Origin: Candidatus Kutchimonas denitrificans
GTDB lineage: Bacteria; Gemmatimonadota; Gemmatimonadetes; Palauibacterales; KS3-K002
Direction of reading: 5' to 3'
Length of the DNA stretch: 64,000 nucleotides
NCBI GenBank assembly: GCA_011774835.1
Contig: JAACAK010000113.1
Location: 5,029 to 69,028 of the forward strand
The translations under genes and the position numbers were made by a program. The notes under the pieces were generated by a model. The model did no database searches, had not been told where the DNA came from, and saw nothing but the letters and a program-made list of their open reading frames with translations. Positions 1-18,768 of the stretch are shown here, piece by piece. How positions within the stretch are numbered: the stretch's first letter is position 1; each line of letters opens with the position of its first letter.

Positions 1-687
1 GCCTTAGCCCGATCGCTCCCGCCGGAACTCGGCTCGCTGGCCCGGGCCAGCGAGTTGCGCAGCGCCGGGGCCGGCGCCCTCGCCTGGCGGTTGGGCTGGC
101 CGGAGCTCGACGAGCTGCTGGGCGGCGTGCCCCGGGGGCAGCTGAGCGAGTGGGCGGGCCCGCGGTCGGCGGGGAAGACGGCGGCGCTGCGGCGGCTGGT
201 GGCGACGGTTCTGGAGGCGGGGGCGGGCGCCGCCTACGTGGACGGGGCGGGGACGCTGACGCCAGCGGCCTGGATCCAGGGCCGCCTGGGCCCGGGTGCG
301 GGTGCGGCGCCATTCTGGGTGGTGCGGCCGCCGGAGCCGGCGGGCGTGCTCGCGGCGACGGACGAGCTGGTCCGGAGCGGCGCCTTCGGGCTGGTGATCG
401 CCGAGGGGGCCGACTGGTCACGCGTTCCCGCCGTCCGGCTGCAGCGCCTGGCCCGGGACACCGGGGCGGCACTGGTGGCGGTGGTGGCGCGAGCGGGGAA
501 GGTGCCGCTGGCCGGGCTCCGGGTGCAGTTCGCTTCCGAGCCCGGTTCCCGCGTCTACCGGGTCCGGGTCCGGGGTCAGCGGGCCCGGGAAGTCTCTTAC
601 GCGCAGGAGCTGCCTTACCGATTGCCCGGCGACTCCGGGTCAGCGGATCGTCGCGGTCTCGAGTCCGAGCCACGATACCGTCCGTAG
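1..687 (+). CDS. imuA: ImuA-like RecA-fold SOS-mutagenesis protein (5' end probably outside the window)
   Basis: The frame is open from nt 1, with no stop upstream of the listed start at 55. It has 'LDELLGGVPRGQLSEW', the P-loop-like 'GPRSAGKTAAL' and 'FGLVIAEG', typical of the ImuA/SulA-like family. An ImuB-like gene lies downstream on the same strand. Confidence 0.6.
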   Translation, partial: ALARSLPPELGSLARASELRSAGAGALAWRLGWPELDELLGGVPRGQLSEWAGPRSAGKTAALRRLVATVLEAGAGAAYVDGAGTLTPAAWIQGRLGPGAGAAPFWVVRPPEPAGVLAATDELVRSGAFGLVIAEGADWSRVPAVRLQRLARDTGAALVAVVARAGKVPLAGLRVQFASEPGSRVYRVRVRGQRAREVSYAQELPYRLPGDSGSADRRGLESEPRYRP

Positions 688-706
688 CGATCGGCCGTTC
701 GGTGAT

Positions 707-954
707 GGGAATCATCATTCCCGGAGGTCGGGATTCTGATTTCGGGAATATCCAGCTCTCTCCGAATTGTTGAAGCTGATTCGGGGAGTCGGGGCTTCGG
801 GGAATCGGGGAGGTAGGAGGTGACAGCCTGGCAGCCCTCGTCGCCAGCACTTCGTCTTTCCCCGAATCCCAGAATCCCCGAACCCGCTTCGGCAATTCGG
901 AGAGAACTCGAGCTTCCCCCAATCGGAATCCCGATATCCGATTTCGTGATTCCC
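707..954. repeat. Repeat family 1, copy A: ~248-bp imperfect long palindrome (MITE/REP-like)
   Basis: The left arm gggaatca...ttctctccgaattg...ttcgggg is the reverse complement of the right arm ccccgaa...caattcggagagaa...tgattccc. A second copy lies at 3392-3645. It starts 20 nt after the imuA stop. Confidence 0.85.
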
Positions 955-1101
955 ATCCCACAATTGCCGCGGCGGCTGTGAACCGGTAACATGCGCCTTC
1001 CGAGCGAGTTGTCGTCGTCCACCCGCCGGAGCATCGAACGAATCGCGAATGAGCAGCGCCCGCAGGTCGATCCAACCACTCGACACGGAGCCCCTCCCGC
1101 G

Positions 1102-3399
1102 ATGAGCCGCGACCCCATGTCCCGCTGGCACTGGGTGGCGATTATCGCCGTGGCGGCCATCGTGCTGACCATCCCGATCCACGCGGTGAAATGGATGGCC
1201 GACGATGATGATGAACGGTCGCGGGCCGGGCGTGATTCGGCGGCGACCTTCGTGGGACGCGAGTCGTGCGCCGAGTGCCACGAGGCGGCCACCGAGGCGT
1301 GGCGCGGGTCCGATCACGATCTGGCGATGGCGGTGGCCACGGACAGCACGGTTCTGGGCGATTTCGACGACGCGGTCTTCGAGTACGGCGACATCACGGC
1401 CCGCTTCTACCGTCGCGACGGCGGCTACTACGTCTATACCCAGGGCCCGGACGGCGAGCCGGCCGAGTTCGAGATCGCGTACACGTTCGGGCACGAGCCG
1501 CTGCAGGGTTATCTGATCCCGTTTCCCGGCGGCCGGCTCCAGTCGCTGACGATCGCCTGGGACGTCGAGCGCCGGGAGTGGTTCTATCTCTACCCCGGCG
1601 AGGAGATCCCGCCCGACGACTGGCTGCACTGGACGCGGGGCGCCCAGAACTGGAACGGCATGTGCGCCGAGTGCCATTCGACCAACCTGGTAAAGGGCTA
1701 CGACTTCGAGACGAAGACGTACGCGACCACGTGGTCGGAGATCGACGTGAGCTGCGAGGCGTGCCACGGACCCGGCTCGCGCCACGTCGACTGGGCGGAG
1801 GTCCCGCCGATGGCCCGGCCGGCGCTGGAGAACTACGGGCTCGTGATACCGACCGGCGGCATCAGCTCGCGCCAGCAGGTCGAGCTCTGCGCCCCCTGCC
1901 ACTCGCGGCGGTCGGTGCTGGGCGACTACGACCACACCCGGCCGGACCTTCTCGACAACATCGTGCCGACCGTGCTCGAGGAGGGGCTCTACCACGCCGA
2001 CGGCCAGATCCTGGACGAGGTGTACGTCTACGGCTCGTTCGTGCAGAGCAAGATGTTCCGGAACGACGTGCGCTGCAGCGATTGCCACGACGTTCACAGC
2101 CTGGAGCTTCACTTCGAGGGGAACGATCTGTGCGCCCAGTGCCACCTGGCCGACACCTACGACAGCTACGACCATCACTTCCACGAGGAGATCGTCGACG
2201 GCGAGCCGAGCGAGGCGGTGCTGTGCGTGAAGTGCCACATGCCGGAGCAGCCCTACATGGTCATCGACTGGCGCGCCGACCACAGCCTGCGGGTACCGCG
2301 CCCCGACCTCACCCTCGCGATCGGCGTCCCCAACGCCTGCGCGCAGAGCGGCTGCCACGACGACGAGACCGACGAATGGAACGCGAGACACTACGAGGAC
2401 TGGTACGGCAAGGCGCGGAAGCCGCACTACGGGACCGTGCTGGCCGCCGGGCGCCGCGCCGACCGGGCGGCCGAGCCGGACCTGGCTCGACTGGCCGGCG
2501 ACCCGCTCTACCCGGCGATCGTCCGCGCCACCGCCCTCACCCTGCTGGCCACCTACCCGGGGGACTCCAGCGCCTCGGCCTTCAACCGTGCGCTGCAGGA
2601 CGAGGAGGCGCTGGTCCGTTACGCCGCGGTCTCCAACATCAACCCGCCGGACGCCGAGCGGCGGGTCGAGCAGGTGGCGCCGCTCCTCTTCGATCCCGTG
2701 CTGGCCGTCCGTATCCATGCGGCGTCGCGGCTGGCCGGCACGCCGAGCGAGCTGCTGAAACCGTATCAGCGAGCGAGGCTGGACACGGCCCTCGCCGAGT
2801 ACGTGAGCGCGATGGAGTACTCCCTCGATTTCGCCTTCGCCGGCCACAACCTGGGCAACGTGTACGCCAGCCTCGGCGCGCCGGAAAAGGCCGAGACCTA
2901 TTACCGGGCGGCGATCGAGATCGACCACCTCTTCTATCCGGCGAAGGCGAACCTGGCCGTGGTCCTCAACTCGCAGGGGAGGAACGCCGAGGCCGAGTCG
3001 CTGCTGCGCCAGGTGCTGGAGGACTATCCCGACCAGCATGACGCGCAGTACTCGTTGGGGCTGCTGTTGGCCGAGATGGAGCGGATGGAAGAAGCCGCGG
3101 AGTTTCTGGGTCGGGCGGCGCGGGGGATGCCCGACCGGGCGCGGGTGCACTACAACCACGCGCTCGTGCTGCAGAGAGTCGGGCGCGATGACGAAGTGGA
3201 GGCGGCGCTGCTCCGGTCGCTGAACCTGGCGCCCGAGAACCTCGACTTCCTCTACGCCCTCGCCGACTTCTACGTGCAGCGCGGTCGGCTACGCGAAGCG
3301 CTGCCCATCGCCGAGCGCATGATCGAGGCGCACCCGGAAAACCCGGTCGGCCGCGAGGTGAGGGTCTATATCGAGAGGGAGCTTCGGGGAGGGGAATGA
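1102..3399 (+). CDS. Multihaem c-type cytochrome (7 CXXCH + 1 CX4CH) with C-terminal TPR repeats, membrane-anchored or secreted
   Basis: Haem motifs CAECH, CAECH, CEACH, CAPCH, CSDCH, CAQCH, CVKCH and CAQSGCH. N-terminal hydrophobic segment 'WHWVAIIAVAAIVLTIPIH'. TPR-like C-terminal part (YYRAAIEIDHLFYPAKANLA..., HYNHALVLQRVGR). Start chosen at the ATG at 1102 (MSRDPMSRW) rather than the ORF-track 991. Confidence 0.85.
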   Translation: MSRDPMSRWHWVAIIAVAAIVLTIPIHAVKWMADDDDERSRAGRDSAATFVGRESCAECHEAATEAWRGSDHDLAMAVATDSTVLGDFDDAVFEYGDITARFYRRDGGYYVYTQGPDGEPAEFEIAYTFGHEPLQGYLIPFPGGRLQSLTIAWDVERREWFYLYPGEEIPPDDWLHWTRGAQNWNGMCAECHSTNLVKGYDFETKTYATTWSEIDVSCEACHGPGSRHVDWAEVPPMARPALENYGLVIPTGGISSRQQVELCAPCHSRRSVLGDYDHTRPDLLDNIVPTVLEEGLYHADGQILDEVYVYGSFVQSKMFRNDVRCSDCHDVHSLELHFEGNDLCAQCHLADTYDSYDHHFHEEIVDGEPSEAVLCVKCHMPEQPYMVIDWRADHSLRVPRPDLTLAIGVPNACAQSGCHDDETDEWNARHYEDWYGKARKPHYGTVLAAGRRADRAAEPDLARLAGDPLYPAIVRATALTLLATYPGDSSASAFNRALQDEEALVRYAAVSNINPPDAERRVEQVAPLLFDPVLAVRIHAASRLAGTPSELLKPYQRARLDTALAEYVSAMEYSLDFAFAGHNLGNVYASLGAPEKAETYYRAAIEIDHLFYPAKANLAVVLNSQGRNAEAESLLRQVLEDYPDQHDAQYSLGLLLAEMERMEEAAEFLGRAARGMPDRARVHYNHALVLQRVGRDDEVEAALLRSLNLAPENLDFLYALADFYVQRGRLREALPIAERMIEAHPENPVGREVRVYIERELRGGE

Positions 3400-3645
3400 T
3401 GATTCTCAGAGGTCGGGAATCTGACTTCGGGAATCTTTAGTTCTCTCCGAATTGCCGAAGGCGATTCGGTGATTCGGGGATTCGGGGCATCGGGGAAAGA
3501 CGAAGTGCTCGCGAGGAGGACTACGCGCCTGTTACCTCCCACCTCCCCGACCCCCCGATTCACCGAATCTCGAATCCGCTTCAGCAATTCGGAGAGAACT
3601 CGACCTTCCCCAAATCAGAATCCCGATATCCAATTTCGGATTCCC
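3392..3645. repeat. Repeat family 1, copy B: ~254 bp, central segment inverted relative to copy A
   Basis: The arms align with copy A at about 75% by eye. The central ~50 bp (ggggaaagacgaagtgctcgcg...ctgttacctcccacctcc) is the reverse complement of the copy A centre. Its first bases overlap the cytochrome TGA (3397-3399) and its last base overlaps the stop of the convergent lipid-kinase gene (3645-3647). Confidence 0.85.
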
Positions 3646-4571
3646 TAACTCAAAGGGGCTGTCTCGGGCAGGTGAAACGCCAGCGCCTTCCCCAGCAGCT
3701 CGAACTCGAACTTCGTGTCCTTCAGCGGCTCGCCGTCCAGGTTGATGTACATCGACTCCGGCACCTCGATCGTCAGCGAGTCCGTCCGCCAGCTCTCCAT
3801 CTCGCTTTCGATTGCCCCTCGCCCTTCTCGCAGCAGCGCGACGATCCGCTCGACCCGCTGCTCCGCCGCCGGCGCGGGCAGCACCGAAACGTCCAGCTGA
3901 CCGTCGTCGAGGAGCGCGTCCGGACACAGCGGGATGCCGCCGCCGGCGAAGCGCCCGTTGCCCACCGCCAGCGCGATCAGCTCGCCCTCCCACGACAAGT
4001 CGGGGCCGCTCAGCTTCGCCTCCACCGGCTGGATGTCCAGGAAGCGCCGTAGCCCGGTGAGCAGGTAGGCGGCGCTGCCCAGCACCTTCTTCAGGTCCTC
4101 GTTCGTCTCGGCGATGATCTCGGTGCCGCTGCCGCCCGAGGCGAGGTTGACGAAGAGGCGGCCGTTGACCTTTCCCACATCGATCGGCACCGGCTCGGTG
4201 TCCGTTACGATCGTCAGCGCGGCGAACGGGTCTTCCAGCGGTATGCCGCAGGCTCGCGCGAAATCGTTGCCGGTCCCCAGGGGGAGCAGCCCCATCGCGC
4301 GGGGCGCGTCCTCTCGATCGGCCAGCAGCCCGGTCGCTACCTCGTTCAGCGTGCCGTCGCCGCCCCCCGCCACCATGACCTCCACCCCGGCCTCCGCCGC
4401 CTCCCGGGCGAAGCGTTCGGCGTCGCCCGGCTCCCAGGTCACCCGGACCTCGACCTCGTGCCCGGCCGCGCGAACCCCCTCCACTGCTTCGCGGACGGCC
4501 GGTTCCCGGGCCACCTTGCCGTGAAGGATGAGCCGCAACCAGCGTCCGTCGCTCTTCTTCTTGGTCGGCAT
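3645..4571 (-). CDS. Diacylglycerol-kinase-catalytic-domain lipid kinase (YegS/BmrU-like)
   Basis: 'VMVAGGGDGTLNEVATGL', 'LPLGTGNDFAR' and 'GGGIPLCPDALLDDGQLDV' are hallmark DAGK_cat / YegS-family motifs. Confidence 0.85.
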   Translation of the reverse strand: MPTKKKSDGRWLRLILHGKVAREPAVREAVEGVRAAGHEVEVRVTWEPGDAERFAREAAEAGVEVMVAGGGDGTLNEVATGLLADREDAPRAMGLLPLGTGNDFARACGIPLEDPFAALTIVTDTEPVPIDVGKVNGRLFVNLASGGSGTEIIAETNEDLKKVLGSAAYLLTGLRRFLDIQPVEAKLSGPDLSWEGELIALAVGNGRFAGGGIPLCPDALLDDGQLDVSVLPAPAAEQRVERIVALLREGRGAIESEMESWRTDSLTIEVPESMYINLDGEPLKDTKFEFELLGKALAFHLPETAPLS

Positions 4572-4755
4572 CGGTGTCCGTTCTCGGGTTCGCTGTTGGT
4601 GCGGCGATGATTGGGTGGAGGGATAATAGCGGGCGCCGTGCGAGGGGCAATCGCCGGTGCCTCCTGGGGGCGCGAGAGATGCTTGCCCGTCCGTTATTTT
4701 CGGTTTATCTTCGGGACCCCCGGGTCATGTCGCTAAACTTCCAACACGGATCGCC

Positions 4756-6366
4756 ATGTCACCCAGGACCCATCGCGTCGCTCATCTGCGGATCCCCGAT
4801 TTCCCCATCGTCGCCCACCTGCGAACGGAGGCCGGGGGGTCTGAGAGCCCGCCCGGAATCCCCGAATCACCTTCGCTGACTCCCAACATAGTCGTGAGAG
4901 GCGAGGGTGCCCGGGCCGAAGTGATGGCAGCCACGCCAGCGGCTCGGCAGGCCGGTATCGCTGTGGGAATGCGGGCCGCGGACGCCCGGGGCCTGATCGC
5001 GGACCTGCGGGAGTGGACCTGGTCGCCGGCGCTGTACGACGAGCTCGGCACCGAGCTGGCCGCAGCGCTCCTCGCCGCATCGCCGCTGGTGAGCCGGGCG
5101 GGCCCCGGCGCCTTCCGGCTGGACGCCGGCGGTTGGGACCGCCGGGGCGGAGAGGAGGCGTTCGTCGAGGCGGCGCGCGCGGCGGCGCTGGCGGCGGGCT
5201 ATCCCGAGGCCCGGGTGGGCGTGGCCGACACGCCAGTGGCGGCCCGGGCGGCGGCCTGGCTGCGGGAGCGCGCGGCGTACCGGGTGCCGCCGGGCGGGGA
5301 CGCGGACTTCCTGGCGAAGCGCCCGCTGTCGGTCCTGCCGGTCTCCGCCGATCTGCTGGAGCTGCTGGAGGCGCTGGGGCTGGAGACGGTGGGCGAGCTG
5401 GCGGCGCTGGAGGCGGGCGAGGTGGAATCGCGGCTGGGGCGGGAAGGGGCCCGAGCGCACCGCTGGGCCCGGGGGCTGGACGACGGCCGGGAGGGTCCGT
5501 TCCCCCGACGCCACCAGGAAGGGTGGGCGGCGGAGGTCGAGCTCCCCGGCCCCGTCGAGCGGCTCGAGCCGCTGCTCTTTCTGTTGAAGTCCTGCCTCGA
5601 CAACCTGTCGACCGCTCTGGCCGCCGAGGGGCTGTGCGCCCGGGGACTGCGGCTGACGATCGAGACCGAGGAGGGTTCGGCGCGGAAGCGGGTACGGCCC
5701 GCCCGGCCGACCCGTCAGGTGGCGATGCTTCTCTCCCTCAGCCGGGGCGTCCTGGGCGACCTGCGGCTCCCCGGCCGGGCGCTGGCGATCCGGGTCGAGG
5801 TGGAGGAGGCGGTCCCGGCGCTGGCCGAGCAGATCGATCTGTTCGAGGCGGCCCGGCCCGACCCGGACGCGTTAGCGACCGCCCTGACTCGGCTCCAGGG
5901 CCGCTGGGGGCCCGAATCGGTGGTGCGCCCGATCCCGTTCGCCAGCCATCGGCCGGAACGGCAGGGCCGCTGGGAACCGGTCGACCTGATGAAGGAGATC
6001 CGGCGCCGCGGTCCGTTGCTCGACGGCAACAGCGCTAAGGGTGAGGAGGCTGGTGAGGGTCCCGTCGCCCTGGCCCTGGTCCTGCGGCTCTGGCCGCGGC
6101 CGCGCCCCATCGAGGTGCGGATCGACGGCGGCCGACCGGGCGCGGTGGCCCTGGACGACGGCTGGCGGACGGTCCGCGCGCTGCAGGGACCCGAACGCCT
6201 CTCCGGCGACTGGTGGGAGGACGAGTACCGGCGCGAGTACTACCGGCTGAGCACCGAGGCCGGCGACCTGTTGTGGGTCTTCTGGGATCCTCGTACTCGA
6301 GTGCCACCGGCACTCCCCAGGACGCCCAATTCGTTGCCTCTTGGCGGTCTGAGTAGCATCTTTTGA
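4756..6366 (+). CDS. imuB: ImuB-like (catalytically inactive Y-family polymerase homologue)
   Basis: The N-terminus 'VAHLRIPDFPIVAHL' lacks the acidic catalytic motif of DinB. The C-terminus 'ERLSGDWWEDEYRREYYRLSTEAGDLLWVFWD' resembles the ImuB tail. Start at the ATG at 4756 (MSPRTHR). Confidence 0.7.
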   Translation: MSPRTHRVAHLRIPDFPIVAHLRTEAGGSESPPGIPESPSLTPNIVVRGEGARAEVMAATPAARQAGIAVGMRAADARGLIADLREWTWSPALYDELGTELAAALLAASPLVSRAGPGAFRLDAGGWDRRGGEEAFVEAARAAALAAGYPEARVGVADTPVAARAAAWLRERAAYRVPPGGDADFLAKRPLSVLPVSADLLELLEALGLETVGELAALEAGEVESRLGREGARAHRWARGLDDGREGPFPRRHQEGWAAEVELPGPVERLEPLLFLLKSCLDNLSTALAAEGLCARGLRLTIETEEGSARKRVRPARPTRQVAMLLSLSRGVLGDLRLPGRALAIRVEVEEAVPALAEQIDLFEAARPDPDALATALTRLQGRWGPESVVRPIPFASHRPERQGRWEPVDLMKEIRRRGPLLDGNSAKGEEAGEGPVALALVLRLWPRPRPIEVRIDGGRPGAVALDDGWRTVRALQGPERLSGDWWEDEYRREYYRLSTEAGDLLWVFWDPRTRVPPALPRTPNSLPLGGLSSIF

Positions 6367-6405
6367 GCGGCCCCACCATCAACCCAACTCCCGCTGGTCA
6401 TCGCG

Positions 6406-8475
6406 ATGTCCGGTCTCAGACGGCTAATCGTCGAAGCCCACCGCCGCTCGCTGTGGCAGGTGCTGCTGATCTACGTCGGTGCGGCCTGGGCCTGCTTCGA
6501 GCTGATCGACGCTGTGACCGAGCGGCTGGGGCTTCCTGCCTGGCTGCCCGGCCTCGCCATCGTGCTCTTCTTGCTCGGGCTGCCGTTCGTTGTCGCCACC
6601 GCGTGCGTGCGCGACGAGATCGGTCCGCTAACGGAGGAGCGGCCTAGCCCTGAGGCCGCGTCGGTAGAGGCCGAGCGAGAAGCAACACGTCGCCAGCGAA
6701 GACTCCTAACCTGGCGGAACGCGGCTGCCAGCTTCGTGGTGGCGCTGGCGGTGTGGGGTGTCGCGGCCTTCGGTTGGCTCGTGTTGGGCGAAGCCCGGAG
6801 CGAGCGAGGGGACGATGCGGGGGCGCGTCCTGCCGTGGCCGCTCTCCCGTTCGTCAACTTGAGCGGACGCGAAGAGGACGCCTACTTCACGGACGGTATC
6901 CACGGCGAGATCCTGACCCAGCTGCAGAAGATCGGCGGCCTCAAAGTCATCTCGCGGACTTCGGTGGTGGGGTATCGCGATAGCCCGAAGAACGCCCGTC
7001 AGATCGGTTCGGAGTTGAACGCCGGATACCTGCTGGAGGGCGAGATCCTGCGCGCCGCCGACCAGGTCCGGGTCAACGTCCAGCTGATCGACGCTCGAAC
7101 CGATGAGCACCTCTGGGCGGAAATCTACGATCACGAGATGTCGATCGAGAGCTTGCTTGACGTACAGGGCGAGATCGCGCGCCAGATCGCGCTGGCCCTC
7201 AGGACCGAGTTGACGCCGGAGGAGCGTGCCCGGATCGAGGCGCGACCCACGGACAACATGGAGGCATACCAAGCCTATCTCCGCGGTCAGTACTTCATGG
7301 ACTTGCCGCACTTCACCGAGGATGACCTGAATCGAGCACTGGAGGAGTTCGAGCGCGCCGTGGAGCTCGATTCCGCCTTCGCGCTGGCCCACGCCGAGCT
7401 GGCCCTGGCTCAGGCCCAAAAGGTCTACTACTGGGTCGACGCATCCCAGCGTCAACGCGATCTGGCTACGCGTACGGCGCAGCGGGCAGCACGTGTCGCG
7501 CCCGAGTCTCCCGACGTGCAGCTCGCGCTGGGCCTCTATCATCTCTGGCTCAACCGGGACCCGGAGCGGGCGCTGGAGGAGATCGACCGGGCCGCGGAGA
7601 ATTTGCCCGATAGGAAGCGGGTGCTGGTCGCTCGGACCGCCGTCTATGAGGTGCAGGGGAAGTTTGAAGAAGCGATGGATTTGTGTCGGGAGGCGCTGGA
7701 ACTGAGCCCGAGGGACGCGTCGATTCACACTTCCATCGCCTCTTACAACTGGCTGCTGAGGCGCTACGAGCAGGCGGAGGCCGAAGCCGAACAGGCGATG
7801 ACGCTGGCGCCGGACCAAATGTGGCCGAGGCTGTACAAGGCGTTCATCATCTGGAGCGACCGGGGGGCAGACGATGAGAGCGAAGCGATTCTGGATGCGC
7901 TGCCGCACGAGAACCCTTGGGTCCGGTGGGCGCGGTACTGGCAGCGGATGTCTCAGGATCGGTACACGGACGCTCTGGACGTGCTCTCGGAGAGCGAGTC
8001 CGAATGGATTCGCCTGAAGACGTGGGCACGACCCCACGCGCTGCTGGCGGCCTGGGCCTACCGGGCGATGGGCCAGGCGGACCGAGCGAGCCAGCTGTTC
8101 GAGGAGGCGCGACTGGCTTTGTTACGAGAACTGGAGACGCAGGCCGAAGACCCGCGATACCACAGCTCGCTGGGGCTGGCCTACGCTGAGTTAGGGCAGA
8201 CTGAGCGCGCGCTGCGCGAAGGCGAACGTGCGGTGGAACTTCTGCCCCGTTCGACCGACGCCTTTTACGGCATCCCGTATCTGCTGGACCAGGCTGCCAT
8301 CTCTGCGATGGTTGGTGACGAAGACATCGCCTTGGACCAGATCGAGCACCTTCTCACGATTCCTTCCTGGGTCTCCCGGATGTGGCTGGAGGGCGATTTC
8401 CGCTTCGACACGCTGCGGGAAAGCCCGCGCTTCCAGGCGCTGCTGGACCAGTACCCGCAGCCCGCCAGCAACTGA
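6406..8475 (+). CDS. Membrane-anchored TolB-N-like / TPR repeat protein
   Basis: N-terminal TM helices. 'ALPFVNLSGREEDAYFTDGIHGEILTQLQKIGGLKVISRTS' is the TolB_N-like module seen in BTAD/cyclase-associated TPR proteins. A long TPR region follows. Confidence 0.7.
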   Translation: MSGLRRLIVEAHRRSLWQVLLIYVGAAWACFELIDAVTERLGLPAWLPGLAIVLFLLGLPFVVATACVRDEIGPLTEERPSPEAASVEAEREATRRQRRLLTWRNAAASFVVALAVWGVAAFGWLVLGEARSERGDDAGARPAVAALPFVNLSGREEDAYFTDGIHGEILTQLQKIGGLKVISRTSVVGYRDSPKNARQIGSELNAGYLLEGEILRAADQVRVNVQLIDARTDEHLWAEIYDHEMSIESLLDVQGEIARQIALALRTELTPEERARIEARPTDNMEAYQAYLRGQYFMDLPHFTEDDLNRALEEFERAVELDSAFALAHAELALAQAQKVYYWVDASQRQRDLATRTAQRAARVAPESPDVQLALGLYHLWLNRDPERALEEIDRAAENLPDRKRVLVARTAVYEVQGKFEEAMDLCREALELSPRDASIHTSIASYNWLLRRYEQAEAEAEQAMTLAPDQMWPRLYKAFIIWSDRGADDESEAILDALPHENPWVRWARYWQRMSQDRYTDALDVLSESESEWIRLKTWARPHALLAAWAYRAMGQADRASQLFEEARLALLRELETQAEDPRYHSSLGLAYAELGQTERALREGERAVELLPRSTDAFYGIPYLLDQAAISAMVGDEDIALDQIEHLLTIPSWVSRMWLEGDFRFDTLRESPRFQALLDQYPQPASN

Positions 8476-11370: not shown

Positions 11371-14016
11371 TCAGTAATGGAAGCGGAGCGAGACCCCGAA
11401 CGTTCGCGGCTGGTTGGTCAGGTAACCCACGCGGGCGAGGGTTCCCCGCTCCCGGTCCAGCGCCAGGAAGGCTCGCTCGTCCGTCACGTTGTTCGCGAAG
11501 ATCGCCGCCTCCCAATTCCCGCGGAGCAAGCCGACGCGCAGGTTGACGAGGTTGTACGCCGGCAACAACGGATCGAAGGTAAACGTGGTCTCCGTCAGCG
11601 GCCCACCTAGGGTGTTCGGTTCGAACGCGGTCAAGTCCACGGTACCGATGCCCGGCCGGTGGTCGCCGATCTCCGTGAAGCGCGAGCCGATGTGGTGGTA
11701 GGTCCCGGTGACGAAAGCCCGGGTCCCCCGACTCACCGGCCACTGATACGTGGCGGCGGCGGTCACCTGGATCTCCGGCACGCTGGGCAGGCGGTTCCCC
11801 TCCTCGATGCCCGATACCACGTTCCCGGCCCCGTCTAAGAAGGTCGAGCGCAGTTCGGAGTCGTTGAAGGCGGCCGCGACGGAAAAGTCGAAGTTATCGG
11901 TGGGGTTGGCCGTGACCTCTAACTCCACGCCCTGGCTGCGTGCGCTCTCCACGTTCAAGACCTTCCGGGAGGAGCACGTTCCCGCGGTCACGGTCAACTG
12001 GAGGTCGCTGATGTCCATGTAGAACGCGGACACGTTGAGCGAGGCGCGGCCGCCCAGCAGCCTCGACTTGGCTCCCACCTCGTAGTTCCACGCCGTCTCG
12101 TCTTCCCAAGTTTCCAGCGGGCTGAAAATCTCCAGATCCTCGGGCGTGCACAGCGGAACGTTGAGGGGATCGTTGATCCCGCCCAACCGGAACCCCCGCG
12201 ACGCCTGGGCGTTGAGGGTGAGATCCTCCGTCGCCTGGTAGCTGGCGATGAAGCGCGGTGCCAGGCCGTCGGCGTCGGTGGAGCCGGGCTGCGACACCAG
12301 CGAGTCTCCGGTGCCGTCGTTGCCGAAGATTCCGTCGAAGATCTGGTCGCGGTTCTCGTCGAAGTTGTAGTAGCGCAGTCCGCCGGTGAGCCTGAGCTGC
12401 TCGACCGGGGTCACGGTCGCCTCGCCGAAGACGGCGAACTGCTCCAGGTCGTAGTTCAGGTCGGAGAAGAACAGCTCGTCCTCCTGGGCCTGGAGCCCCT
12501 CGGTAAAGCCAGGCGGGGCGCCAAGCTCCGGCGCTGCCATCTCGTCAAACCCGAAGACGATTAGGCTCTGGCCGTATTCGCGTTTGTTGTTGCTGTAGAA
12601 GCCGCCGACCAGCCACTGGAGCCACTCGTTGCTGCCCGACAGCCGCACCTCCTGGGTGAACACCTTGCTGATCGTGGCGTCGTCCAGCGGTGAGTCGAGC
12701 GTGTAGATCGGCTCCGAGAGGCCGAGAGAGCCGCCGGTTATGCTGGAGGTCAGGGCGCCGGCGTCGCGCACCACCAGGATGTCGCGGTAGGTGTAGGACG
12801 TGACCGAGGTCAGGCTCGCCGGTCCGAAGTTGTACTCCAGGTTCAGATCGGTGAGCAGGAAATCATCGGTGAAGGGCTCCCCGATCTGGGTGAAGAGCTC
12901 GCGTTCGCCCAGGTTCACCGCGGGCCGTGTAGTGGTGAACGGGTTGGCCAGGATGTTGTAGTCGTCGATGCGGTTCCAGCCGTCCATCTTCACCCTCTGA
13001 TAGACGACTCGCGGAGTGATCGAGAAGCGTTCGTTCGGGACGATCCGAAACGCGGCACGCACGCCGGTCCGGTCGCCGCCGTTGACGTTCTCGTTGACAT
13101 CCAGGTTGGGCTGCACCGCGTCCATATAGCCGCCGATCCGGCTGCTGTAGCCCGCCACCCGAAAGGCCGCCTTGTCGCCCAGTGGCACGTTGGCGCCGAT
13201 CTTCGCGCTGTTGCCCGGGTCCCCCCCGTCGATCCAGTTGGCGCCCACCTCCCCGAAGACGCTGTACACGCCGAGCTCGGGCTGGTTGGTGATGTAGCGG
13301 ACGGTGCCGGACAGCGAGCCGGAGCCGAACAGGGTACCCTGCGGGCCGCGCAGCACCTCCACGCGGGAGACGTCGAACAGGTCCAGGTCAGGTGTGTACA
13401 GGGAGAGCGAGATGGCCGCGTCGTCCAGATAGGCGCCCACCTGCTCTTTCACGCCCGGCTGGTCCCGGGCGATCTGGCCCGAGGAGGCCCCGCGCATGGC
13501 GACCTGGCTCTGGCCGGGGCCCAGGTTCTGCACGCTGAACCCGGCCACGTTGGCTGCAACGGCCTCGATGTCCTCAGCACCCCGCGCCCGCAGGACGTCC
13601 CCGGTCGGGGCGGCGATGGAGAAGGGGACGTCGGCCAGCTCCTGCTCGCGGAGCATGGCGGTGACGATGATCTCGTCGAGCACCACCGGCCCCAACTCGA
13701 AGTCTACCGTGACCGTCTCGCCAGCCGCGACCTGAACGTCCCTCTGCGTCCGTCGGATTCCGATCAACGACGCGGAGACGGTGTACACGCCCGGAGCCAG
13801 GTCGCTGAAGGTGTAAGTGCCGTCGGCGGACGTGGTCGTGGTTCTGGAAGCGTCGGTGGCCTGGTTGGTCACCTCGACGGTGGCTCCCAGCACTCCGGCA
13901 CCGTCGGGGTCGCGTACCGTACCGGTGATCCGGCCGGTTTGCGCGTACGCCGGGACGCCATGAAGGACGACGGCCAGGGCAGCAAAGGCCAATAGCCGGC
14001 TCACGGGGCTAACCAT
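11371..14016 (-). CDS. TonB-dependent receptor with N-terminal carboxypeptidase-regulatory-like domain
   Basis: Signal peptide 'RLLAFAALAVVLHGVPAYA'. 'GRITGTVRDPDGAGVLGATVEVTN...DGTYTFSDLAPGVYTV'. Plug and barrel motifs, with an aromatic C-terminus '...SLRFHY'. The ATG at 14016 is preceded by GGGAGGG. Confidence 0.9.
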   Translation of the reverse strand: MVSPVSRLLAFAALAVVLHGVPAYAQTGRITGTVRDPDGAGVLGATVEVTNQATDASRTTTTSADGTYTFSDLAPGVYTVSASLIGIRRTQRDVQVAAGETVTVDFELGPVVLDEIIVTAMLREQELADVPFSIAAPTGDVLRARGAEDIEAVAANVAGFSVQNLGPGQSQVAMRGASSGQIARDQPGVKEQVGAYLDDAAISLSLYTPDLDLFDVSRVEVLRGPQGTLFGSGSLSGTVRYITNQPELGVYSVFGEVGANWIDGGDPGNSAKIGANVPLGDKAAFRVAGYSSRIGGYMDAVQPNLDVNENVNGGDRTGVRAAFRIVPNERFSITPRVVYQRVKMDGWNRIDDYNILANPFTTTRPAVNLGERELFTQIGEPFTDDFLLTDLNLEYNFGPASLTSVTSYTYRDILVVRDAGALTSSITGGSLGLSEPIYTLDSPLDDATISKVFTQEVRLSGSNEWLQWLVGGFYSNNKREYGQSLIVFGFDEMAAPELGAPPGFTEGLQAQEDELFFSDLNYDLEQFAVFGEATVTPVEQLRLTGGLRYYNFDENRDQIFDGIFGNDGTGDSLVSQPGSTDADGLAPRFIASYQATEDLTLNAQASRGFRLGGINDPLNVPLCTPEDLEIFSPLETWEDETAWNYEVGAKSRLLGGRASLNVSAFYMDISDLQLTVTAGTCSSRKVLNVESARSQGVELEVTANPTDNFDFSVAAAFNDSELRSTFLDGAGNVVSGIEEGNRLPSVPEIQVTAAATYQWPVSRGTRAFVTGTYHHIGSRFTEIGDHRPGIGTVDLTAFEPNTLGGPLTETTFTFDPLLPAYNLVNLRVGLLRGNWEAAIFANNVTDERAFLALDRERGTLARVGYLTNQPRTFGVSLRFHY

Positions 14017-15298: not shown

Positions 15299-17374
15299 AT
15301 GAGCCAGGATCTCGAGCCCAAACAGTACGGAGTCCGTCCGCCGCCCGAGCTCAACCCGCGAACCGACCCTGTGCTCGACTTCCCCGACGCCGACTACGGC
15401 GAGCTCGAGCCCGAGGATTACCGGACCCTGGGGTTCATGTCGGGTCTCGAAGTCCATCAGCAGTTGCTCACGAGATCGAAGCTCTTCTGCCGTTGCCCGG
15501 CGGGCCGCTACGTGGACGAGTACGACGCCGAGGTGCTGCGCCACATGCGGCCGACGCTGAGCGAGCTGGGCGAGTACGACGGCACGGCGCTGATGGAGTT
15601 CAAGACGCGGAAGGAGATCGTCTACCAGCTGGAGCGGGGCTCGGTCTGCACCTACGAGATGGACGACACTCCGCCGTTCGAGATCGACGGAGAGGCGGTA
15701 CGGATCGCCATCGAGATCGCCGAACTCCTCGACCTCAACCTGGTCTCCGAGCTCCACGTGATGCGGAAGCAGTACCTGGACGGATCGATCCCGACCGGGT
15801 TCCAGCGAACCGCGATGGTCGGGCTGACCGGGACGATCCCGTTTCGGGTCCCGGAGCTGGGTGTGAACCGCGAGCTGCGCATCCGGCAGCTGTCGCTGGA
15901 GGAGGATGCTTGTCGGGAGATCGCCGACGTCGGGCACTACATCACGTTCCGCACCGATCGGCTGGGCATGCCGCTCACCGAGACGGTGACCGAGCCGGAT
16001 CTGGCGAACCCGCTCGAGGTGCAGGCCGCCGGTCGGCTGCTGGCCCGGGTGGTGCAGGCGACGGGGAAGGTGCGGCGCGGGCCGGGCGCGGCGCGGCAGG
16101 ACGTGAACGTGTCGGTGGCGGGCGGCCGGCGGATCGAGATCAAAGGGGTGGACAACCATCGTAACCTGCCGCGCCTGGTCCACGTCGAGGCGTACCGGCA
16201 GCTGAACCTGCTGCGGGTGCGGGCCGAATTGCAGAATCGAGGCGTCGATCCCGAGATGCTGACGGTTCCGGAGACCGGGCTGCCCTGGGAAGTCACCCCG
16301 CATGCCGTCGACGCGGCCTCGGCGGTCAGCCCGTGCGAGTACGCGCCGATCCGCGATGCGCTGGAACGCGAAGAGAAGGTGATCGGCGTGCGGCTGCCGG
16401 GATTCGGCGGCCTGCTGGGCCACCGGACCCAGCCGGGCGTGACCTTCGCCCGGGAGTTCGCCGATCGGATCCGCGTGATCGCTTGCCCGGTCCATCGGCC
16501 GTTCATCATCCATTCCGATTTGACCGACTACGGGCTCGACCCCCGACAGTGGCGGGCCCTGAGCAAACAGCTCCGGGTCGAGCAGGGCGACGTGATGGTG
16601 GTGGTCTGGATGCCGGAGTCCGACGCGGCCACCGCGGTGCGGGAGATCTTCATCCGGGCTCGGGAGGCGCTGGTCGGGATCCCGGCGGAAACGCGGCAGG
16701 CGTTCAGCGACGGGACCACGGGGTTCGAGCGGATCCTACCGGGCCCCGACCGCATGTACCCGGACACCGACACGCCGCCGGTGCGGATCCGCGACGAGCT
16801 GGTTCTCGAGGTCCGGGAGGGTCTGCCGGAGACGCCGTGGGCGCGTGAATCACGCTACGAGGCGCTGGGGCTCGACCCGGAGCCGGCGCGGCGTCTGGCT
16901 GCGGCACCCTGGGCGGAGCTGTTCGACGCCCTGGCGCCCGCGCCGGGTGCCCCGGCCCGCCGGTTCGCCGACGTGCTCGAGACACGGATCCCGCACCACC
17001 GCCGGAACGGCGCCATCGACTATCTGCCGTCGGCGCAACGTCTCGACCCGCTGGTCCGTGCGGTGGAGAGCGGCGCGATTCGCCCGGAGGCGATGGAGCG
17101 GGCCCTAGACGATCTGATCGACGCGCCCGATCGGTCGGTCGATAAAGTGCTGGCACCGTATCGCCCGGGGCCGGATGACGACGCCGAGCTCGAGCGTGCG
17201 GTCGCGGACGCCGCCGCTCGTGCCGAGGCGCTGGCGGGCAAGCCGGCGGAGGCGGTGTTGCGCTGGGCGATGGGCGAGGTGATGCCCCGATTTCTGGGCC
17301 GGGTCGATCCGTCCCGGGTGCGGCAACGCTTGATCGCAGCGCTGCAGCTGGCCGGAACGGAGGTGGCCGGATGA
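15299..17374 (+). CDS. gatE: Archaeal-type Glu-tRNA(Gln) amidotransferase subunit E
   Basis: 'YRTLGFMSGLEVHQQLLTRSKLFCRCP' matches the GatE N-terminus. GatB/YqeY-like tail 'LRWAMGEVMPRFLGRVDP'. About 690 aa. The stop overlaps the gatD start (ATGA at 17371-17374). Confidence 0.8.
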   Translation: MSQDLEPKQYGVRPPPELNPRTDPVLDFPDADYGELEPEDYRTLGFMSGLEVHQQLLTRSKLFCRCPAGRYVDEYDAEVLRHMRPTLSELGEYDGTALMEFKTRKEIVYQLERGSVCTYEMDDTPPFEIDGEAVRIAIEIAELLDLNLVSELHVMRKQYLDGSIPTGFQRTAMVGLTGTIPFRVPELGVNRELRIRQLSLEEDACREIADVGHYITFRTDRLGMPLTETVTEPDLANPLEVQAAGRLLARVVQATGKVRRGPGAARQDVNVSVAGGRRIEIKGVDNHRNLPRLVHVEAYRQLNLLRVRAELQNRGVDPEMLTVPETGLPWEVTPHAVDAASAVSPCEYAPIRDALEREEKVIGVRLPGFGGLLGHRTQPGVTFAREFADRIRVIACPVHRPFIIHSDLTDYGLDPRQWRALSKQLRVEQGDVMVVVWMPESDAATAVREIFIRAREALVGIPAETRQAFSDGTTGFERILPGPDRMYPDTDTPPVRIRDELVLEVREGLPETPWARESRYEALGLDPEPARRLAAAPWAELFDALAPAPGAPARRFADVLETRIPHHRRNGAIDYLPSAQRLDPLVRAVESGAIRPEAMERALDDLIDAPDRSVDKVLAPYRPGPDDDAELERAVADAAARAEALAGKPAEAVLRWAMGEVMPRFLGRVDPSRVRQRLIAALQLAGTEVAG

Positions 17375-18768
17375 CCGAGGCAACGCACGACCTGTACAAG
17401 GGCTACCGCGGTCCCTGCCTCGAGGTGATGAAGCGGTTCGGAATCACGGTCTGGTGCGAGGTGAGGGCGGAGACGACACGGGGCACGTTCGAGGGTCTGT
17501 TGTTGCCGCGCTCCGAGACCAGCGACGACCTCCATCTGGTTCTGAAACTGGGCAGCGGGTACAACATCGGAGTGCGGCATGACACGGTGCGCTCGCTGGA
17601 AAAGATCGGCTACCGGGAGGCCCACTATCAGATACCGGAGAAGGAGTTCCCCACCGATCCGGTGAAGCCCAGCGTGAAGCTCTTCGGCACCGGCGGCACC
17701 ATCGCCTCGCGCCTCGACTACCGGACCGGCGCGGTCATCCCGGCGTTCAGCCCGGGCGAGCTCTACGGGTCGGTCCCGGAGCTGGCGGAGATCTGCAACC
17801 TGGAGACCGAGAAGCTGTTCGGCGTCTTCTCGGAGAACATGGGCCCCGAGCAGTACCTGCGCCTGGCGGAAGAGGTGGGCGGAGCGATCCGCGAAGGGTA
17901 CGACGGGATCGTCATCGGGCACGGCACCGACACGATGCACCACACCGCCGCCGCGCTGAGCTTCATGGTGCAGCGGCCCCCCGTGCCCATCGTGATGGTG
18001 GGCAGCCAACGATCATCGGACCGGCCGTCGTCCGACGCGGCGCGGAACCTGATCAACGCCTGCTCGACCGCCGCCAGCGGACCCATCGCCGAGGTGATGG
18101 TCTGCATGTTCGGGCCGACCTCCGACCGGTACAACCTGCTGCACCGCGGGACCCGGGTCCGCAAGATGCACTCGTCGTACCGCAGCACCTTCCGCACGCT
18201 GGGCGACATACCGCTGGCGATGGTGCAGGACGGTGAGATCACGCCGCTGAAGCACGGCTATAGACCGCGCCGGGACGATCGCGAGGTCACCGTGCAGGCG
18301 GCCTTCGAGGAACGTGTAACCATAGCCTACTACTATCCCGGCATGCATCCGGATATGATCGACGCGCTGGTCGAGAAGGGGTACAAAGGGATCGTGATCG
18401 CGGGCACCGGGCTGGGCCACGTCAACCGCAGGATCTACCCGGCGCTGGAGCGGGCTCACGCCGCGGGCGTCCACATGTACATGACGCTCCAGACGCTGTG
18501 GGGCTTCGTGCAGATGCACGTGTACGAGACGGGGCGCGAGATCCTGCAGCTGGGCGTGGTACCGCTGGCCAACATGCTGCCCGAGGTCGCGTACATCAAA
18601 CTGGGTTGGGCGCTGGGCGTGCACCCCGACGAGCCCGACGCGGTCCGCGAGCTGATGACCGCGACGATCGCCGGCGAGATGACCGAGCGCGAGCCGCACG
18701 ACGGCTATCTGATATTTCAGGGCGGGGTTCCCGAGGTCCAGGAATTCCTCGAGAAGATCTGGCGATGA
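17371..18768 (+). CDS. gatD: Archaeal-type Glu-tRNA(Gln) amidotransferase subunit D (asparaginase-fold glutaminase)
   Basis: GatD-specific N-domain 'TFEGLLLPRSETSDDLHLVLKLGSGYNIGV'. Asparaginase catalytic motifs 'LFGTGGTIAS' and 'GHGTDTMHHTAAALSF'. Confidence 0.85.
   Translation: MTEATHDLYKGYRGPCLEVMKRFGITVWCEVRAETTRGTFEGLLLPRSETSDDLHLVLKLGSGYNIGVRHDTVRSLEKIGYREAHYQIPEKEFPTDPVKPSVKLFGTGGTIASRLDYRTGAVIPAFSPGELYGSVPELAEICNLETEKLFGVFSENMGPEQYLRLAEEVGGAIREGYDGIVIGHGTDTMHHTAAALSFMVQRPPVPIVMVGSQRSSDRPSSDAARNLINACSTAASGPIAEVMVCMFGPTSDRYNLLHRGTRVRKMHSSYRSTFRTLGDIPLAMVQDGEITPLKHGYRPRRDDREVTVQAAFEERVTIAYYYPGMHPDMIDALVEKGYKGIVIAGTGLGHVNRRIYPALERAHAAGVHMYMTLQTLWGFVQMHVYETGREILQLGVVPLANMLPEVAYIKLGWALGVHPDEPDAVRELMTATIAGEMTEREPHDGYLIFQGGVPEVQEFLEKIWR

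Follow-up and report, generated by a model that had tools for sequence, protein, structure and literature searches.

Interspersed palindromic repeats are well studied in the Proteobacteria but essentially undescribed in the Gemmatimonadota. In REP/REPIN systems (REP, repetitive extragenic palindromic sequence; REPIN, REP doublet forming a hairpin) the units measure ~20-40 nt and typically flank the gene of their cognate RAYT (REP-associated tyrosine transposase), a Y1/HUH, IS200-like enzyme. The repeats are non-coding, extragenic and multi-copy, have a short imperfect palindrome at the core of the unit, occur singly or as inverted doublets that form a long hairpin around a less conserved spacer, cause no target-site duplication (TSD), and are distributed vertically within restricted lineages (PMC3116915, PMC3337134). 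REPIN doublets are more conserved than singlets, which are decayed remnants, and compensatory changes on both sides of the hairpin are common (PMC3116915). The REP palindrome is reported to carry, on one side, a conserved GTAG or CGTC tetranucleotide (PMC3733652). Here we describe a family of larger repeats in Candidatus Kutchimonas denitrificans (Gemmatimonadota, Palauibacterales), a marine bacterium not in culture, starting from two ~250-bp copies, A and B, that lie in inverted orientation on either side of a multihaem cytochrome gene. Both are found in a 64-kb stretch of contig JAACAK010000113.1, the whole of which is called the window below; positions refer to it unless another contig is named.

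Three other kinds of element invite comparison. The bacterial MITEs (miniature inverted-repeat transposable elements) considered here were Correia, ERIC, MITEAba12 and the Tn3-derived TIMEs. Foldback (FB) transposons are eukaryotic, larger, generate TSDs and are linked to transposase-bearing copies of their own. The REP clusters of enterobacteria, or bacterial interspersed mosaic elements (BIMEs), have side functions in mRNA stabilization and transcription attenuation.

The explanation that we prefer, with a probability of about 0.6, is that A and B belong, independently of each other, to a family of non-coding, interspersed palindromic repeats that is restricted to this lineage, REP/REPIN-like or foldback-MITE-like, and selfish or neutral.

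Results

A dispersed repeat family

In a global alignment, A and B were 75% identical (score 252 against -57 ± 12 with shuffled B), and blastn matched them in both the direct (E = 3e-48) and the inverted sense (E = 8e-50). A preliminary description of this locus had estimated the same identity by eye and had seen a long imperfect hairpin in each copy. Both statements hold: the arms of A (722-804 and 858-940) are 81% complementary, and the minimum free energy as RNA, which that description had proposed to calculate with RNAfold, is -156.4 kcal/mol for A (z = -11.3) and -137.6 kcal/mol for B (z = -9.4), with 0 of 200 shuffles as low in either case. Its further claim, that the central parts of the two copies are reverse complements of each other, was confirmed over 97 nt at 81% (786-882 and 3473-3569), with a local score of 77 as reverse complements compared to 18 in direct alignment.

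To find further copies we used a 26-nt pattern, CAATTCGGAGAGARCTNNNNNTTCCC, that matches all four arms of A and B. It occurred at 31 loci on ~20 metagenome contigs, and only in the assemblies JABAHQ01 and JABAHS01, two pooled metagenomes of deep sediment from the Gulfs of Kutch and Khambhat (Arabian Sea). With a hidden Markov model of the arm, the pattern hits resolved into 36 elements, which represent 23 distinct sites (12 full hairpins and 11 single arms). The preliminary description had named confinement to these two loci as evidence against its proposals; instead, the repeat is dispersed over at least 23 distinct sites. A rebuilt, more sensitive nhmmer model added no copy in 389 kb, which indicates that most members bear the pattern and that the scan probably recovered most of the assembled copies.

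The elements are 248-343 bp long and non-coding, with a G+C content of ~58% compared to 67% for the window, and no open reading frame (ORF) was called inside them at the one locus with gene calls. Sites can be clustered, with four on one 68-kb stretch and two only 2.5 kb apart in L026. Within the window, neither blastn nor the pattern nor nhmmer revealed another full copy. The sole extra nhmmer match (E = 0.027), a 24-nt echo of the motif at 4852-4875, CCCGGAATCCCCGAATCACCTTCG, was rejected as a chance resemblance; its position is in frame within the coding sequence of the imuB-like gene.

The host of the family is Candidatus Kutchimonas denitrificans, and the paper that names this organism makes no mention of repeats at all. 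A JABAHQ contig (L001) is 99.8% identical to the window and carries copy A intact, with scaffold Ns at copy B. Its runs of N lie at L001 10990-11055, the centre of copy B, and at 11486-11541, in the TPR-coding part of the cytochrome gene, and the gene caller placed an ORF in antisense there. Short-read assembly and annotation are thus broken by the hairpin.

Anatomy of the arms

The building block of the family is a G-rich arm of ~105-130 nt, of which 35 were brought into an anchored alignment. The outer end of the arm reads (T)GGGAAT. Degenerate GGGARTTC 8-mers come next, in variable number, and inward of these stand the block ATCGGGATTCTGATTTsGGGAA and the best-conserved part, the core GAGTTCTCTCCGAATTGyCGAAGcG. 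The arm also holds a conserved imperfect hairpin of ~35 nt, CTCCGAATT-G-TCGAA-GCGGA-TTCGG-G-GATTCGGGG, whose 3' half-stem is repeated in the inner part as 2-5 tandem GATTCGGG units. There are two inner ends, GGGGAGGTrGGAGGTG (type 1) and GGGGAAAGACGAAGTG (type 2). The core and the first 8-mers give the same ~35-nt hairpin in every single arm and, as the arms of a full copy are also paired with each other, the element is truly nested.

Arms occur singly or as an inverted pair round a ~25-30-nt spacer, which yields the ~250-bp hairpin. The core-to-core gap in the 12 full copies is 107-133 nt, and eight of the 12 are clearly composed of type 1, loop and type 2. Of the single arms, nine could be classified, every one as type 1. 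Loops of different copies resemble each other at the random level (54.6% alike, compared to 51.7 ± 7.1% when shuffled), and self-complementarity within the loop is not consistent. That they might be captured native terminator hairpins was considered and rejected (mean z = -0.6, only two of 12 significant). One site present in two assemblies (L015 6709-6798 and L022 7287-7368) differs between them by one 8-nt GGGGGTTC unit, which points to slippage, a microsatellite-like length variation within the element. Beside a single arm in L028, a C-rich short tandem repeat, CACCCACTACCCATCACCCACTACCCATTACCCACTACC, follows directly at ~4740-4790, and after it come a promoter-like TTGACT...TTAACT pair and the start of the next gene.

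The ends of A and B were set by family conservation, (T)GGGAAT...ATTCCC(A). Setting them by the folded extent of the element and its flanks was dropped, as the G+C-rich flanks pair by chance. Copy A, with its type-1 arm first on the forward strand, occupies 706-955 and has the ends TGGGAATC...GATTCCCA. Its left arm (type 1, 706-822, forward strand) comprises the outer TGGGAAT unit, the ATCGGGATTCTGATTTCGGGAA block, the core CTCTCCGAATTG at 758-769, four GGGG-N4 units at 770-812 and the inner end GGGGAGGTAGGAGGTG at 807-822. The loop, unconserved across the family, spans 823-847, and the right arm (type 2, 848-955, reverse strand) has its inner end CACTTCGTCTTTCCCC at 848-863 and its core CAATTCGGAGAG at 893-904. 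Copy B is inverted relative to A, with its type-1 arm first on the reverse strand, and occupies 3391-3647, or starts at 3377 if the outermost degenerate 8-mer is included. Its left arm (type 2, 3391-3507, forward strand) has the core CTCTCCGAATTG at 3443-3454 and the inner end GGGGAAAGACGAAGTG at 3492-3507; the loop follows at 3508-3532, and the right arm (type 1, 3533-3647, reverse strand) has the inner end TACCTCCCACCTCCCC at 3533-3548 and the core CAATTCGGAGAG at 3585-3596.

Conservation of sequence and of pairing

Conservation in this family is at the level of the arm sequence. Arms are 76-83% alike across the family and loops are at the random level. An origin of the doublets by snap-back (inverted duplication) as a recent process was rejected, as an element's own arms are no more alike than unrelated arms (75.5% within one element, 77.8% between elements). 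Pairing in the conserved core is 95.9%, compared to 95.5% after the partners were shuffled among sequences. The covariation score was 0.092, compared to 0.087 ± 0.006 for shuffles, 92 of 500 of which reached it, and the covariation term of RNAalifold was +0.47. A lack of structure-preserving covariation was the other finding that the preliminary description had listed against itself, and here it must be conceded. The hairpin exists because both arms retain the family sequence, not because pairing is maintained.

Single arms are not decayed doublets. Two solo arms were on average more alike (79.7%) than two paired arms (72.5%; permutation p = 0.0012), in a comparison that was controlled for ascertainment by using pattern-matching arms only and positions outside the search pattern only.

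Genomic context

All 23 sites lie between genes, as a rule at a distance of 6-60 nt past the stop codon of a gene. Ten are convergent, seven tandem, two doubtfully divergent and four of unknown class, and convergent sites are enriched (10 of the 19 classifiable, p = 0.009).

In the window, the stop codon of an ImuA-like RecA-fold gene (55-687, forward strand; TAG at 685-687) lies 18-19 nt before copy A. Between the copies is exactly one gene, as the preliminary description had stated, an eight-haem cytochrome c/TPR gene (1102-3399, forward strand) that forms a single ORF with seven CXXCH motifs, one CX4CH motif and TPR repeats. Convergent with it is a YegS-type lipid kinase gene (3645-4571, reverse strand). 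The stop codons of these two genes were also placed correctly in that description, TGA at 3397-3399 and TAG at 3645-3647, and both are held by the outer repeats of copy B, the kinase TAG being part of the terminal TAGGGAAT. Compared to 29 homologues, the C-terminus of the cytochrome is a few residues shorter, and its final codons and TGA come from the outer repeat of the element. The shortened cytochrome end and the stop codons in the outer repeats fit insertion at the extreme 3' ends of both convergent ORFs.

No TSD was found at the sites. The longest direct repeat between an element's own flanks had a mean length of 2.1 nt, compared to 2.3 ± 1.6 nt in a control where the left flank was paired with the right flank of another element, the termini being shifted by up to ±4 nt.

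The nearest relative available (L033; 82% amino acid identity in ImuA, 75% in the cytochrome) keeps the order 414-aa gene, Tricorn-like gene, imuA and cytochrome gene. Where copy A sits in the window (688-1101) it has cytochrome b and Rieske genes (L033 8056-9994), of which neither the window nor L001 has a homologue, and at the position of copy B, after the cytochrome gene, it has different genes. Synteny with the relative therefore breaks exactly at both A and B. Intergenic DNA is too diverged between the two genomes to define exact empty sites. No nhmmer match to the element was found in the relative at E <= 10.

Alternative explanations

Very large bidirectional terminators or insulators were among the roles offered in the preliminary description. 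One possibility for the siting of the elements is that they are 3'-end modules selected by the host, that is, bidirectional transcription barriers independent of a T tract, insulators or stabilisers of mRNA 3' ends, and that their spread is secondary. The adjoining stop codons and the convergent enrichment (p = 0.009) are consistent with such a role, as are the great stability of the hairpins and the higher conservation of arms than of loops, and enterobacterial REP/BIME sequences have side functions of this kind. However, there is no T-tract terminator 3' of the hairpin of A or B (the one match inside an element is a 6-bp stem at 719-733, and the count is as expected from shuffles), there is no compensatory change (92 of 500 shuffles reach the covariation score), and within an element mismatches affect about 25% of arm positions. 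The better-conserved form is the single arm, which is unable to build the large hairpin, and in the relative the same gene ends go without the element. We regard selection by the host as unlikely.

Another possibility is that the GGGGATTC/GGGARTTC 8-mers and the core form arrays that are recognised by a host protein binding DNA or RNA, for instance in nucleoid organisation, or G-quadruplex modules on the G-rich strand. That sequence rather than pairing is conserved, that the number of 8-nt units is variable and that single arms are homogeneous would all suit such arrays. A canonical four-tract G-quadruplex motif is present in the inner 8-mer array of 15 of the 35 arms, and some arms carry one in the outer repeats as well; however, more than half of the arms lack the inner motif, and we have no candidate protein. 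Neither of two tests for strand preference was significant: type-1 arms in tandem contexts had one polarity relative to the neighboring genes in four cases and the other in one (p = 0.19), and G.U (G.T) mismatches on the RNA strand numbered 54 compared to 38 for A.C (p = 0.12). Binding arrays are improbable as a full account, but they are compatible with the repeat-family explanation because a transposase would bind such sites too.

It could also be speculated that the replicating or functional unit is the single type-1 arm and not the hairpin. The unit would then be a REP-like hairpin set in arrays of GGGGATTC-type 8-mers, often capable of forming a G-quadruplex and ending in GGGGAGGTrGGAGG, and the full hairpins would be older or derived doublets. 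We consider this a long shot, of about the same low standing as the binding arrays.

The preliminary description had proposed that A and B are recombination substrates that could invert the cytochrome gene. Such a switch, by inversion or by deletion through direct matches, is very improbable. The two copies are indeed inverted around exactly one gene, and the synteny break at both is compatible with a past rearrangement there. However, with an overall identity of 75% the longest exact matches between A and B are 22 nt inverted and 20 nt direct, and 20-22 nt is too short for efficient homologous recombination by RecA. The independent, 99.8% identical assembly has the same arrangement, the orientation of the cytochrome gene relative to imuA is the same in the relative, no recombinase gene is found among the neighbors, and the other 21 sites of the family, in unrelated contexts, do not bracket genes in this manner.

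A family of structured non-coding RNA genes transcribed from each copy (small RNAs, transposon-guide-like RNAs or riboregulators) is hardly credible: the type-1-first strand folds somewhat better as RNA in seven of eight polar elements (by a mean of -7.3 kcal/mol) and GGAGGTrGGAGGTG, at the type-1 inner end, looks like a double Shine-Dalgarno sequence, but the strand asymmetry is largely built into the definition of types 1 and 2, there is no covariation, the loops are random, A and B have no promoter-like site, and a search of 400-5200 against Rfam 15 at E <= 1 brought no family near its threshold, returning only miRNA-precursor hairpin models at 22-29 bits (thresholds 74-120).

Gene neighbourhood

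The cytochrome ORF is open from 991, and the NCBI start calls are 1102 or 1117. The identical protein is deposited under four metagenome-assembled genome (MAG) accessions, NIR43289.1, NIR76055.1, NIS00434.1 and NIT66092.1. A further neighbor is a gene for an ImuB-like Y-family protein (ATG at 4756). The usual mutagenesis cassette is imuA-imuB-dnaE2. In the window (55-6366), the cytochrome and yegS-type kinase genes separate the imuA-like from the imuB-like gene, and the gene after the latter encodes a TPR protein and not DnaE2, so that the cassette is disrupted here; the ImuA and ImuB matches themselves score well under the curated cut-offs.

After the imuB-like gene, where the window has 31 nt (6294-6324), L001 has an extra 7.8 kb (493-8278) that encodes a 23S_rRNA_IVP-family protein, two TPR/BTAD proteins and two hypothetical proteins. 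Past this junction, which has no repeat arm, the identity between L001 and the window falls to 87%.

Elsewhere in the window (15299-18768), adjacent genes exceed the cut-offs of the NCBIfam equivalog models of archaeal-type GatE (503.8 bits against 456) and GatD (497 bits against 324). GatDE, a Glu-tRNA(Gln) amidotransferase, is regarded as an archaeal system, and its presence in a Gemmatimonadota genome reflects either a bacterial acquisition or a binning issue. No tRNA was found in the 64-kb window.

Discussion

The repeat family of A and B appears, by analogy, to work most like REPINs. It is likewise non-coding, extragenic and multi-copy, with a short imperfect palindrome at the core of a unit that stands alone or in inverted doublets round a less conserved spacer, and it shares the long hairpin, the absence of TSDs and the vertical, lineage-restricted distribution. 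Unlike REP units, however, the arms are ~100 nt long and built from 8-nt sub-repeats, singlets are better conserved than the arms of doublets, and compensatory changes are not above chance. Nor does a GTAG or CGTC tag stand beside the stem in the arm consensus, GAGTTCTCTCCGAATTGyCGAAGCGGATTCGGGGATTCGGGG, or in its complement.

MITEs resemble the elements in size (~250 bp), in being non-coding, in having terminal inverted repeats and many dispersed intergenic copies, and in that they may overlap gene ends and alter C-termini. The preliminary description had suggested MITE-like elements, and of its three proposed roles this one, taken broadly, has the best support: the dispersed non-coding family with inverted arms, at 23 sites or more, stands, while a TSD and a parent transposase were not found. 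In further contrast to MITEs, the inverted repeats are not short termini but extend over nearly all of the element, the half-elements are a homogeneous sub-population, and no insertion sequence with the same ends was found. Because the family departs from REPINs on three counts and from MITEs in lacking a TSD, we have filed it under neither.

The likeness to eukaryotic FB transposons, which also have long inverted arms of short, variable-number tandem sub-repeats, a variable middle and hairpin potential, is one of architecture only, and we claim no homology. Like BIMEs and REP clusters, the elements are found directly after stop codons and in convergent intergenic regions, where they could give stable stem-loops in read-through RNA; unlike them, they have hairpins that are ten-fold more stable and no evidence of selection on pairing, and there is no sequence relation.

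Several results weigh against a mobile repeat family. We infer mobility from dispersal only, and the figure of at least 23 sites is a count from assembled contigs and not a copy number per genome. The search pattern had no match in a collection of 185,579 genomes representing species, and neither had a degenerate second pattern taken from elsewhere in the arm; as this collection does not include the source MAG, both negatives concern other species only. Viral contigs gave no pattern match, and plasmid and phage collections no blastn match. Found in no other genome searched, the family is without comparative support. With arms only 76-83% alike, the copies are old or fast-evolving, and no filled/empty polymorphism was seen, near-identical assemblies sharing all sites. 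No transposase, integrase or HUH gene is present among the ORFs of the 64-kb window, and in 389 kb no arm pair encloses a transposase as an autonomous copy would. A RAYT gene, by which REPINs would be accompanied, was not found in the 389 kb either, no tblastn match being better than E = 0.86, but this negative is weak because the probe was an approximate consensus.

If A and B do belong to a mobile family, a trans-acting enzyme encoded elsewhere in the genome would have spread it. Such an enzyme might recognise the small hairpin or the sequence of the arm, and its insertions would leave the target unduplicated, as with HUH/Y1 enzymes (IS200/IS605, RAYT), and copies would survive only where they are harmless, downstream of genes. 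Copy A would have landed after the imuA-like gene and copy B at the convergent junction of the cytochrome and yegS-type genes, where its outer repeats would now supply the last codons and the stops. The bracketing of the cytochrome gene would then be a by-product of two nearby insertions. Transcription running through a copy would produce RNA with a very stable hairpin, and a passive barrier or an RNA-stabilising side effect would be plausible.

There is no evidence for a new mechanism, and nothing suggests a special link to the cytochrome. In layout the family is REP/REPIN-like at about three times the usual scale and with internal sub-repeats, while its conservation pattern, with singlets above doublets and no compensatory change, contradicts the REPIN model. 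The cognate enzyme, if it exists, may recognise something other than the known RAYT substrates. Should the single arm prove to be the unit, this would be a bacterial sub-repeat or "foldback"-type element, spread without duplication by an enzyme still to be identified, and unlike both REPIN/RAYT and MITEs with terminal inverted repeats. As the elements break short-read assemblies, overlap stop codons and sit at synteny breakpoints, they affect MAG quality, the annotation of gene ends and the inference of rearrangements in this group.

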